In this document: positions 18,728-21,442 of the stretch, in pieces
Position numbering within the stretch: the stretch's first letter is position 1
Layout of the letters: each line of letters opens with the position of its first letter
DNA from: a virus
Taxonomy: Duplodnaviria > Heunggongvirae > Uroviricota > Caudoviricetes
IMG/VR virus record: IMGVR_UViG_2529292919_000022
DNA: 22,658 nucleotides
Direction: 5' to 3' (one strand)
The notes under the pieces: model-generated
Databases searched by the model: none
What the model saw: only the letters and a program-made list of their open reading frames with translations
What the model was told of the DNA's origin: nothing
Program-made: the position numbers and the translations under genes

Positions 18728-18735
18728 CACTATAA
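18728..18735. repeat. Target-site duplication CACTATAA (left copy)
   Basis: Direct read; identical to 21435-21442. Confidence 0.8.
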
Positions 18736-18765
18736 GTAAGCGACTCGTCAGAACCGTATTGATAT

Positions 18766-20337
18766 TTACTGAGAGCTCAGATCAACTTTCCAGGGCAACA
18801 GATCGCGTACCCGGTTTGCCGGCCAGTCCTGGATATGTTCAATGACGTAACGCAGCCACTTTTCTGGCTCCACATTGTTCAGACGGCATGTGCCGATCAG
18901 CGAGTACAACACCGCCGCATGTTCACCACCGCTGTCGGAACCCGCGAACATCCAGTTTTTCCGGCCTACGGCCACTCCCCGTAAGGCGTTCTCTGCGATG
19001 TTGTTGTCGATTTCCACCCAGCCATTACTGCAGTACACGTTCAGTGCATCCCACTGTTTCAGCAGGTATGCGAACGCTTTTGCCGTATCTGAGTGACGCG
19101 ACAGTGTTTTCATCTGTTGCTGTATCCAGTCATACAGTGACTGCATCAGTGGCGCGGCTCTGGCTTTTCTTGCCGCCAGACGCTGTTCTGCTGAACAGCC
19201 CCGGACCTCTGCCTCGATGGCATACAGTTCACCGATACGCTGCAGGGCTTCCGTGGTGATGTAGGTGGGCGCTCTTGCATGCACATCGTGGATTTTTCTC
19301 CGGGCATGAGCCATACACGCGGCTTCCGTTATTCTGCCGGATTCGTATAACGCCCGGTAACCACCGTAAGCATCGGCCTGAAGCACACCGCTGTAACCGG
19401 CCAGGTGATTTTGTGGATGGATACCTTTCCGGTCCGGACTGTACGCGAACCAGACCGCCGGGGGCATCTGTGAACCGGCGTTACGGTCATCACGGACGTA
19501 GACCCACAGCCGGGCTGTCCGGGTTTTACCGCTGCCCGGCTCCTGGACCGGGACGGGGATATCATCAGCATGGACTTTACCGGGCATCAGCACATACTGG
19601 CGCAGGACGTCATACAGCGGCTCCAGCAGTTCAGCAACAGCACCTGTCCAGCGCCCCAGTGTGGCACGGCTCAGCTCCACTCCCTGACGACGGTATATTT
19701 CTGACTGGCGGTATAACGGCAGATGGTCTGCATATTTCCCGGTGACAACATGGGCCAGAAGCCCCGCTCCGGCATAACTGCGTGCAATGGGTTTTGAAGG
19801 TACTGGTGCCTGCACGATATGGTCGCACCGGCAACAGGCCTGTTTCGGACGTTGTGTTTCGATAACCTTAAAGGCGCTGCTGATAAGCTCCAGTTGCTCT
19901 GACACATCACATCCCAGAGAACTGAGTTCACCACCACAGGCAGGACAGCATTCCTCTTCCGGCCGGATAACCCGGGTTTCACGGGGAAGTGAGGCCGGTA
20001 ACGGTTTACGGGCTGAAGACTGGCGCAGGGCGGATGGCAGTACCGGGTCATATTGCTCACCCAGCGTTTCCGCCATTTCTTCCTGAAGTGCGCTGATTCG
20101 CTCCTGTGCTTCCTGTATCTGCCGTTCGGTTTTTGCACGAAGTTTTTCTGAGCTTTTACCGAACTGCATACGTTGCAGTTTCGCAACCAGCGCCTTCAGC
20201 CGGTTGATTTCGGAAGCATAAGCCGCCACCCGCTGTGAGAGCAGGCGGTTGTATTCAGCCATCTGGCGGATGGTGTCCTGTTGCGTCTGCAACAGTGCCC
20301 GCAGGCGGGCGTTCTCATGAGCAAGTGAGGTGTCCAT
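18766..20337 (-). CDS. tnpC: IS66-family transposase (orf3/TnpC)
   Basis: ORF track 523 aa with an N-terminal leucine-zipper-like region, a CxxC...CxC zinc-binding motif (CCPACGG...CCRCDH) and a DDE-type core typical of IS66 transposases. Confidence 0.9.
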
Positions 20338-20356
20338 ATCCTCACTTTACAACGGG

Positions 20357-20704
20357 TTATATGCGGATTCCAGCGCGTTCCGTTCGTTTCGGGTGCTTCC
20401 AGTTGATACCTTCAAGAAGCATGGATAACTGAGCCGGAGTAAGGTGCACCTTGCCGTCACGGGTGACTGGCCAGACGAAGCGGCCCCGCTCCAGGCGTTT
20501 GGTGAAGAGGCACAGTCCGTCACTGTCAGCCCACAACACTTTTATCTGGTCACCCCGGCGTCCGCGGAAGATGAACAGGTGTCCGGAGAACGGGTCATCC
20601 TTCAGGACGTTCTGAACTTTTGATGCCAGGCCGTTAAAGCCATTTCGCATATCGGTGATACCTGCAACCAGCCAGATACGCGAACCTGCAGGGAGAGATA
20701 TCAT
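20357..20704 (-). CDS. tnpB: IS66-family accessory protein (orf2/TnpB)
   Basis: ORF track 115 aa MISLPAGSRIWLVAGITDMRNGFNGLASKVQNVLKDDPFSGHLFIFRGRRGDQIKVLWADSDGLCLFTKRLERGRF..., the conserved IS66 Orf2. Confidence 0.9.
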   Translation of the reverse strand: MISLPAGSRIWLVAGITDMRNGFNGLASKVQNVLKDDPFSGHLFIFRGRRGDQIKVLWADSDGLCLFTKRLERGRFVWPVTRDGKVHLTPAQLSMLLEGINWKHPKRTERAGIRI

Positions 20705-21381
20705 CAGTGGCTGCTCCCTTTTATTTCGCGGATAAGTGTCTGTAATAACGCCGGCGTCAGTTTACCTTTAAGCCTGAGAGTTCCGGCCGGCAGAACCAGC
20801 TCACAACACAGACTGTCGGACGGTGTATTTATCTGCTCTGGTTCCTGTGCGGGGGCCGGGATTTTATTATCCGGCTCCGGCGTTAACGTCACGGGAAGCA
20901 GTGCCGGCATATTTTTTCCGGAAGGCAGCAGGCCACCTTTCCGGTATTGATGGCGCCAGTTGAAGAGCAGGTTATCGTTGATTCCGTTTTCCCGGGCGAT
21001 CTGCGCCACACAGGCTCCGGGCTGCAGTGACTGCTCCACTAAGGCGATTTTAAACTCATAAGGGAAGTTGGGCCGCCGGGGACGTTTTTTTACCACGGGG
21101 GCTTCGGATATAACGGTGCTTTCAGGACGTACGACTGGTACCGTGGAAAATTGTCCGTAAAGGCAGGCATCAAGTTCCTGCTCCGACATGCCTGCGGGCA
21201 AAGGCCACGAAAGGCCAGCTCTCCGAAAGCGCACGAACATACTACAAACTGTTGATTTTGGTACACCCAGGCGACGCCCGGCCACAACCCGGGGTAAATG
21301 TTCTTCAAAGTGAAGACGTAAAGCTTCAGTGATCCAGGTCCGGTGTTTCATACGATAGTGTCCATTAAAAATGATGGACAT
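20704..21381 (-). CDS. tnpA: IS66-family accessory protein (orf1/TnpA-like) with an N-terminal extension
   Basis: ORF track 225 aa. Residues ~100-150 (KKRPRRPNFPYEFKIALVEQSLQPGACVAQIARENGINDNLLFNWRHQYRKGG) match the IS66 Orf1 HTH; the N-terminal ~100 aa (LRLHFEEHLPRVVAGRRLGVPKSTVCSMFVRFRRAGL) looks like a second HTH module. Confidence 0.8.
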   Translation of the reverse strand: MSIIFNGHYRMKHRTWITEALRLHFEEHLPRVVAGRRLGVPKSTVCSMFVRFRRAGLSWPLPAGMSEQELDACLYGQFSTVPVVRPESTVISEAPVVKKRPRRPNFPYEFKIALVEQSLQPGACVAQIARENGINDNLLFNWRHQYRKGGLLPSGKNMPALLPVTLTPEPDNKIPAPAQEPEQINTPSDSLCCELVLPAGTLRLKGKLTPALLQTLIREIKGSSH

Positions 21382-21434
21382 TATTTTTGTAGAGCCGGAG
21401 GAAACAGACCAGACGGTTTAAATGAGCCGGTTAC

Positions 21435-21442
21435 CACTATAA
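21435..21442. repeat. Target-site duplication CACTATAA (right copy)
   Basis: Direct read; identical to 18728-18735. Confidence 0.8.

Follow-up and report, generated by a model that had tools for sequence, protein, structure and literature searches.

An IS66-family element inside the integrase gene of a lambdoid prophage remnant in mlrA

The locus described here raises the question of whether an insertion sequence (IS) found close to the integrase gene (int) of a prophage remnant lies in front of that gene or within it. The original prediction took int to start at an ATG at position 21540 and placed the IS between the excisionase gene xis and int. The IS is instead found inside int, in codon 24; the gene starts at 18665, upstream of the IS, and the ATG at 21540 is its internal codon for Met57. 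The reading favoured here, with a probability of about 0.92, is that a common enterobacterial IS66-family element transposed into int of a lambdoid remnant integrated in mlrA of E. coli, which would leave the int allele null and the remnant locked in place. The integrase region contains the following features, with positions given in the window, that is, the whole stretch of 22,658 nucleotides that was analysed.

18359–18631, plus strand: xis, an intact excisionase gene of the DUF1233/xisR type directly upstream of int (Pfam DUF1233, 2.5e-29; PHROG 539 excisionase, 2e-37)
18665–18739, plus strand: int 5' fragment, codons 1–23 and 2 nt, then IS sequence; product MSNASYPTGVENHGGSLRIWFHYK
18728–18735, no strand: left copy of the target-site duplication, CACTATAA, which spans int codons 22 and 23 and runs 2 nt into codon 24
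21435–21442, no strand: right copy of the target-site duplication, CACTATAA, a perfect 8-bp match to the left copy
21441–22658, plus strand: int 3' fragment, codons 24–428 and the stop codon (Pfam Phage_integrase)

The xis gene, the counterpart of which is annotated as xisR in UPEC129, is followed by a spacer of only 33 nt (18632–18664) that lies upstream of the IS, and then by the int start codon, ATG 18665, which is preceded by a GGGAGG ribosome-binding site. The IS enters int 71 nt past this ATG, within codon 24. The 5' fragment, which is identical to the beginning of the annotated integrase WP_000063649.1, encodes a 24-residue peptide that ends at a TAA (18737–18739) within the IS end. On the other side of the element, the 3' fragment has an in-frame TGA at 21423–21425, inside the IS, and the earliest in-frame ATG, GTG or TTG in this remainder of 404 codons is Met57 at 21540, which has no Shine–Dalgarno sequence before it. 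No sigma-70-like promoter was found on either strand between 18200 and 21800, where 2.8 are expected by chance, in a crude consensus search that weak or hybrid outward promoters could escape.

Once the IS and one copy of CACTATAA are removed, a single 428-codon open reading frame runs from ATG 18665, in which the 71 nt that precede the element are in frame with the 97 nt that follow it. The reconstructed protein matches Arm-DNA-bind_2 over residues 7–70 (2.1e-24) and Phage_integrase over residues 203–396 (4.3e-18), scores 19.4 bits against Phage_int_SAM_3, under the cut-off of 22.6, and gives weak matches to solved Int structures. On its domain content, the reconstructed gene is classed as a tyrosine integrase of the lambda type with an N-terminal arm-binding domain; the gene in the window, being split, is not. 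The string predicted for the empty site, ggtttcactataatggcaaacgtg, is present exactly in UPEC129, where the 240 bp surrounding the insertion site are identical and the site falls within the annotated coding sequence of WP_000063649.1. The reconstructed Int and this intact UPEC129 integrase agree at 427 of 428 residues, and apart from the IS no second lesion is present in int. The claim that removing the IS and one repeat copy restores the original sequence is thus borne out by an exact empty site, although the sequence restored is coding and not intergenic.

The inserted DNA has a GC content of 55%, compared with 43–45% in its flanks, and is made up as follows.

18736–21434, minus strand: complete IS66-family insertion sequence, labelled as ISCro1 type, 2,699 bp, with ends set by independent copies
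18736–18761, plus strand: IRR, the terminal inverted repeat on the tnpC side, GTAAGCGACTCGTCAGAACCGTATTG, starting GTAAGCG
18766–20337, minus strand: tnpC, encoding a 523-aa DDE transposase (Pfam and NCBIfam IS66 profiles)
20357–20704, minus strand: tnpB, encoding a 115-aa IS66 accessory protein (Pfam TnpB_IS66, 4.7e-40)
20704–21381, minus strand: tnpA, encoding a 225-aa helix-turn-helix accessory protein (Pfam HTH_Tnp_1, 8.6e-15)
21409–21434, minus strand: IRL, the terminal inverted repeat on the tnpA side, reading GTAACCGGCTCATTTAAACCGTCTGG on the minus strand and starting GTAACCG

The gene order is tnpA-tnpB-tnpC, and all three open reading frames, the counterparts of which are all needed for transposition of IS679, are intact and lie on the minus strand, opposite to int as had been proposed. 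The stop codon of tnpA and the start codon of tnpB share one base (TGATG), and a 19-nt spacer separates the tnpB stop from the tnpC start. All three proteins score above their NCBIfam cut-offs, with 477.9 bits for TnpC against transpos_IS66 (cut-off 180), 128.9 bits for TnpB against IS66_TnpB (NF033819; cut-off 50) and 295.8 bits for TnpA against IS66_access_TnpA (NF038385; cut-off 150). TnpC matches profile positions 1–283 of the 284 of Pfam DDE_Tnp_IS66 (2.5e-103) and contains the additional domains LZ_Tnp_IS66, zf-IS66 and DDE_Tnp_IS66_C. The terminal inverted repeats are imperfect, with 18 matches in 26 positions (binomial P about 3e-6), and their heptamers, GTAAGCG and GTAACCG, differ by a single mismatch. 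The 8-bp sequence CACTATAA occurs exactly twice in the window, on a search of both strands, once at each edge of the element. The family assignment, the imperfect inverted repeats and the perfect duplication that had been put forward all stand.

The IS66 family is associated with a three-ORF layout (PMC12888890), with terminal inverted repeats of 20–30 bp whose first bases are GTAAGCG (PMC11946415) and with 8-bp target-site duplications or direct repeats (PMC6778807, PMC11946415). The structural features of the family are found here, namely an IS66-type TnpC, tnpA and tnpB, inverted repeats and an 8-bp duplication. The founding, experimentally studied members of the family are IS679 and IS66 (Han et al. 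2001, J Bacteriol 183:4296; Machida et al. 1984; cited in PMC6778807), and the present element is likened to them by its organisation and ends: tnpA-tnpB-tnpC, a GTAAGCG-type inverted repeat and an 8-bp duplication.

Along its entire 2,699 bp the element shows 100% identity to many annotated copies on chromosomes and plasmids of E. coli and Salmonella, and these carry the annotation “ISCro1 family” (in PGAP, IS66-like element ISCro1 family transposase). At two other sites, independent copies share these ends but are flanked by different 8-bp duplications, ACATAAAA and CTCCCTGT. The ends match independent annotated copies, and the tnpC end also has the GTAAGCG start of the family (PMC11946415). 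The element would accordingly be of the ISCro1 type, a name that is the PGAP label on its 100% identical copies; one paper gives ISCro1 as an element of 2,824 bp (PMC8764528). With the ISCro1-family elements (WP_000381395.1; TnpB WP_000624622.1, TnpA WP_001339397.1) it shares its DNA, three ORFs, ends and 8-bp duplication, such that the element itself is no different and only the insertion site is new. The copy is full-length and is predicted to be active, given its intact ORFs, the identical copies at many sites and the empty site kept in relatives.

The distribution of the site and of the junction bears on when the element arrived. The site is uninterrupted in about 503 genomes among the complete E. 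coli genomes searched, which answers the proposed search for an empty site in relatives. The int::IS junction, however, is missing from all 5,426 complete E. coli genomes searched and is absent among the GTDB species representatives. The same junction is present in the NCBI contig AIEY01000045.1 (assembly GCA_000249115.2), and the Logan assembly of run SRR094164, which was made independently, has the same right junction. Because none of the 5,426 genomes carries the junction, the insertion is, as judged from this sampling, a recent one that a single strain (GCA_000249115.2) carries. Further signs of recency are the identity of the IS to other copies, the perfect duplication and the lack of a second lesion in int. 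The transposition is later than lysogeny, and a simple, recent event, as originally suggested, agrees with the evidence.

Other accounts of the junction have to be set against this reading. Since the genome is a draft and the IS is multicopy in many E. coli genomes, it might be suspected that repeats misled the assembly and that an IS copy was wrongly joined to the int region, but a misjoin would not yield both junctions with a perfect 8-bp duplication of the length that is made elsewhere, and the SRR094164 assembly, made independently from raw reads, has the same right junction. An assembly artefact is rejected on this evidence, its probability being practically nil. The placement of the IS in an intergenic spacer in front of an intact int, where it would act solely by uncoupling read-through transcription, fares hardly better. 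Viewed without comparison, the uninterrupted 372-aa ORF from ATG 21540 seems a complete gene with a Phage_integrase domain. The true xis-int spacer, however, precedes the IS, the segments flanking the IS fuse in frame into a 428-aa protein that gains an arm domain, and intact relatives annotate precisely this 428-aa coding sequence. With the restored ORF, the arm domain and the UPEC129 annotation all against it, intergenic insertion is likewise rejected and has next to no chance of being correct.

A somewhat less improbable, yet still very unlikely, account holds that int is not null and that a truncated Int starting at Met57 and lacking the arm domain is translated from an outward or read-through transcript and is partly active, leaving the prophage not fully locked. 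The 372-codon 3' ORF is uninterrupted, with the core-binding and catalytic domains still in place, and arm-less fragments of lambda Int retain core binding and topoisomerase-type cleavage in vitro. Against such a restart stand the missing Shine–Dalgarno sequence, the lack of a promoter-like site in or near the IS end in the crude consensus scan, and the need for early-operon transcripts to traverse 2.7 kb of the IS in antisense. Moreover, a protein that begins at Met57 would retain no more than 14 residues of the 64-residue arm domain (7–70), and in integrases of the lambda type the excision reaction between attL and attR with Xis requires arm binding.

The preferred reading, then, is that the element transposed into int. 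For DDE transposases, a target duplication typically arises from a staggered cut and gap repair, and here an 8-bp staggered cut in the target followed by gap repair would have generated the duplication. The insertion would have struck the N-terminal arm-DNA-binding domain of Int and split the gene in two: a 5' part encoding a 24-residue peptide, and a remainder of 404 codons with no start codon before Met57, no ribosome-binding site and no detectable promoter. Between this remainder and both xis and the early (pL-type) transcript there are now 2.7 kb of oppositely oriented IS genes. For these reasons the int allele is very probably null. Since the start of int lies upstream of the IS, the mechanism would be a broken coding sequence and not mere separation from read-through; of the uncoupling first envisaged, the 2.7-kb separation is upheld, but the gene so separated is not intact. 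The intact xis would be left without its partner Int, so that self-excision of the remnant is very probably no longer possible and mlrA would stay split.

The prophage–host boundary is located about 44 nt into mlrA, and the remnant had been gutted before the IS arrived. A large internal deletion is associated with IS100, and the replication, lysis and head genes have been lost. The IS in int leaves xis intact, as well as the immunity region with cI/cro and the genes of the distal tail. The expectation that the IS would help to lock the prophage in place is supported as to its effect, but what is locked is a remnant already rendered non-viable by the IS100-associated deletion, and no longer an active phage. 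The contig does not include the distant prophage end with the second att site, and excision may therefore already have failed for other reasons. This int region is present in up to four copies in some E. coli genomes, and another prophage in the source genome, of which the analysis covered one contig, could supply the same integrase in trans.

Integration in the 5' part of mlrA (yehV) is shared with other prophages, among them the Stx1 prophage of O157:H7 (PMC5931665). As in these prophages, the DNA-binding region of mlrA is split and the integrase adjoins the distal mlrA fragment. Unlike the O157:H7 Stx1 prophage, the present remnant has no stx genes in the window, has lost the replication, lysis and head genes and has a broken integrase; with the integrase broken, it should not show the spontaneous excision that has been described in O157:H7. 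The remnant also resembles IS-decayed lambdoid prophages of pathogenic E. coli, in that a resident IS inactivates a mobility gene and IS100 is found at a deletion, but it differs from other IS-disrupted prophage integrases in a junction that the 5,426 complete E. coli genomes lack. Prophage decay driven by IS elements is common in EHEC, and the event is of an ordinary, already known kind that involves neither a new mechanism nor a new family.

It has also to be considered whether int::IS represents a selected step of domestication, as opposed to neutral decay, in which a fixed mlrA split is combined with retained superinfection immunity. This is very improbable, as the insertion has been seen in one strain only and lends no support to selection; were it true, a curli- and biofilm-off state would no longer be undone by excision. 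In a variant of this idea, an arm-less Int from Met57 may be expressed with some new activity.

For annotation, the region 21540–22658 is not a short integrase gene but the 3' part of an int::IS pseudogene, the 5' end of which is 2.7 kb upstream. The consequence for the host would be a phenotype linked to mlrA: if excision is lost, disruption of the curli and biofilm regulator MlrA would be fixed and not reversible as described for the O157:H7 prophages that occupy this site. The locus thereby provides a further clean case, with the exact empty site known, of resident insertion sequences immobilising prophages.

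The element that the original prediction recognised as an IS66-family insertion does belong to that family, but it lies inside the integrase gene (int) and not, as had been proposed, between int and the excisionase gene (xis). Only two copies of the 8-mer CACTATAA exist in the window of 22,658 bp, one at 18728-18735 and the other at 21435-21442, and none lies on the opposite strand. Between the two copies are 2,699 bp (18736-21434) with a GC content of 55%, against 43-45% in the flanks, containing three minus-strand ORFs. These genes and the neighbouring xis are as follows.

18359-18631, plus strand: xis, DUF1233, PHROG 539 excisionase
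18766-20337, minus strand: tnpC, 523 aa, with LZ_Tnp_IS66, zf-IS66, DDE_Tnp_IS66 (2.5e-103) and DDE_Tnp_IS66_C domains
20357-20704, minus strand: tnpB, 115 aa, TnpB_IS66
20704-21381, minus strand: tnpA, 225 aa, HTH_Tnp_1

TnpA, TnpB and TnpC all score above the curated NCBIfam IS66 equivalog cut-offs (295.8 vs 150, 128.9 vs 50 and 477.9 vs 180 bits, respectively). The stop codon of tnpA overlaps the start of tnpB by one base in the sequence TGATG, and 19 nt separate the tnpB stop from the tnpC start. The termini, GTAAGCGACTCGTCAGAACCGTATTG and GTAACCGGCTCATTTAAACCGTCTGG, are imperfect inverted repeats that share 18 of 26 bases (P about 3e-6). The originally listed sequence features are thus genuine, and chance falls far short of explaining them. 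They agree with what is published for the IS66 family, namely terminal repeats of 20-30 bp starting with GTAAGCG, 8-bp direct repeats (PMC11946415; PMC6778807) and three ORFs encoding TnpA, TnpB and a DDE transposase (PMC12888890). Just past tnpC, within the terminal repeat, the minus strand at 18741-18756 contains a short terminator-like hairpin (a 6-bp stem followed by a T-rich tail), a consensus match only (the region has 4 such sites, and chance alone would give 3.2); this candidate would keep IS transcripts from running antisense into the 5' fragment of int and xis.

Many chromosomes and plasmids of E. coli, as well as plasmids of Salmonella, carry copies that match the element end to end at 100% identity, and places covering at least 80% of it are found in 1,493 of 5,426 complete E. 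coli genomes and in 1,399 plasmid records. Strain E2865 has two independent copies with exactly the same first and last bases as here, each with its own 8-bp duplication: ACATAAAA for the chromosomal copy, which sits in an S49 peptidase gene, and CTCCCTGT for the copy on plasmid pE2865-2. These shared termini set the ends empirically at 18736 and 21434, and the separate duplications show that the element itself generates duplications of 8 bp. Identical copies are labelled by PGAP as 'IS66-like element ISCro1 family transposase', alongside TnpA and TnpB. ISCro1 received its name in Citrobacter rodentium, a species in which it has multiplied to 24 copies (PMC3072379); its size is given elsewhere as 2,824 bp (PMC8764528), whereas the form found here has 2,699 bp, such that 'ISCro1 family' is for this form a PGAP label and the naming is inconsistent.

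The position of the insertion follows from the reading frame. An ATG at 18665, 33 nt past the end of xis and preceded by GGGAGG, opens an ORF that runs for 23 codons and 2 nt before entering the element, where it ends in MSNASYPTGVENHGGSLRIWFHYK followed by a stop. When the element and one repeat copy are removed in silico, this ORF joins in frame to give a single reading frame of 428 codons that extends to the window's final base. Its product contains an Arm-DNA-bind_2 domain (residues 7-70, 2.1e-24) and a Phage_integrase catalytic domain (residues 203-396), and gives weak matches to solved tyrosine integrases. The insertion therefore falls in codon 24 of int, in the arm-binding domain, and the 372-aa gene originally called int, starting at ATG 21540, is the same gene from Met57 onwards.

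Relatives retain the uninterrupted gene. A reconstructed empty site of 1,000 bp was compared with complete E. coli genomes; about 500 contain it unbroken and in one piece (503 have a place with coverage of 80% or more, and identity reaches 98.9%), annotated as 'xisR' followed by 'tyrosine-type recombinase/integrase'. Strain UPEC129 matches the reconstruction at every base of a 240-bp stretch centred on the insertion point and contains the exact empty-site string originally predicted; there, the site falls within the coding sequence of WP_000063649.1 (428 aa), which shares 427 of 428 residues with the reconstructed protein. Both an empty site in a relative and IS66-type ends, on which the original prediction depended, are thus observed, and the case is a textbook insertion of an IS66-family element for which the exact empty site is available.

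The int-IS junction was found in none of the 5,426 complete E. coli genomes and in no GTDB species representative. Looking up the 372-aa product by exact match led to the source, contig AIEY01000045.1 of the NCBI draft assembly GCA_000249115.2; that contig is identical to window positions 16000-22658. A scaffolding artefact at the junction is ruled out by an independent assembly of run SRR094164, in which a contig of 2.9 kb begins with the last 30 bases of the element, continues through CACTATAA into int and also encodes an exact match of the 372-aa product. An event that is recent and private to one strain is indicated by four observations: the duplication is perfect, the element is identical to other copies, int has no further lesion, and the junction is absent elsewhere. 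As a phage with int so interrupted could not integrate by itself, insertion would have come after lysogeny.

The coding sequence is split, and a TGA within the end of the element (21423-21425) closes the int frame. The earliest possible restart of the 3' part is Met57, which lacks a Shine-Dalgarno sequence, and no sigma-70-like promoter was found across 18200-21800, against a chance expectation of 2.8. The allele is predicted to be null, and a Met57 product, if made, would retain only 14 of the 64 arm-binding-domain residues. In lambda-type integrases, Xis-dependent excision (attL x attR) requires this domain. The suggestion that the prophage is locked in place is thus probably right, but through disruption of the gene and not through transcriptional uncoupling of an intact int, the cause originally put forward.

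The prophage was already a remnant, and the window contains none of its genes for replication, lysis, the head or the proximal tail. The remaining features, in order, are given below.

Left part, minus strand: tail genes lom, J, I, K, L, M and a truncated tape-measure gene
10325-12278, minus strand: IS100, IS21 family, 1,954 bp, complete
10391-11173, minus strand: istB of IS100
11170-12192, minus strand: istA of IS100
After IS100: cro-like gene, cI-like repressor, early genes, xis, int

IS100 forms the direct link between the truncated tape-measure gene and the cro-like gene. Its flanks here differ (GTAAG at 10320-10324 vs CAAAT at 12279-12283) and so lack a target duplication, while a copy in another strain (L004) is flanked on both sides by the 5-bp duplication GAAAA. 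Such a pattern is typical of deletions associated with an IS and implies an IS100-associated deletion of the missing genes. The tape-measure gene (7794-10375, minus strand) consists of two overlapping ORFs, 9170-10375 (TMP_2) and 7794-9248 (TMP_4, Tape_meas_lam_C), and, set against its 1,021-aa counterpart in L004, is about 525 nt short at the 5' end; a frameshift together with a truncation is probable. The immunity region (12219-13324) looks intact, with the cro-like gene (YdaS_toxin/PHROG 35, minus strand) divergent from the cI-like repressor, a 255-aa protein with HTH_3 and Peptidase_S24 (LexA-like self-cleavage) domains. The remnant may still give superinfection immunity and respond to an SOS signal. 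Computed from coordinates, the first base of the window corresponds to about base 3 of AIEY01000045.1, inside a tail-fibre gene, and the other prophage end with its att site is off this contig.

The kind of event and the element are already known, and only the strain-specific site is new; the main value lies in correcting the annotation, as the locus is an int pseudogene, interrupted by the element, in a decayed prophage. The host gene carrying the prophage is mlrA (yehV), a curli and biofilm regulator, whose distal part lies downstream of int on the source contig (L005:7120-7841), just past the right end of the window; this 228-aa fragment is still called 'mlrA' by gene callers. With prophage-free genomes, the alignment begins only at about nt 44 of mlrA, indicating that the initial ~15 codons, which belong to the MerR-type HTH, are cut off from the rest and that the prophage splits the DNA-binding region of MlrA. 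In O157:H7, insertions of this kind abolish curli and biofilm formation, and excision of the prophage restores mlrA (PMC5931665). Here, in contrast, int is broken, and restoration of mlrA by excision should not occur.
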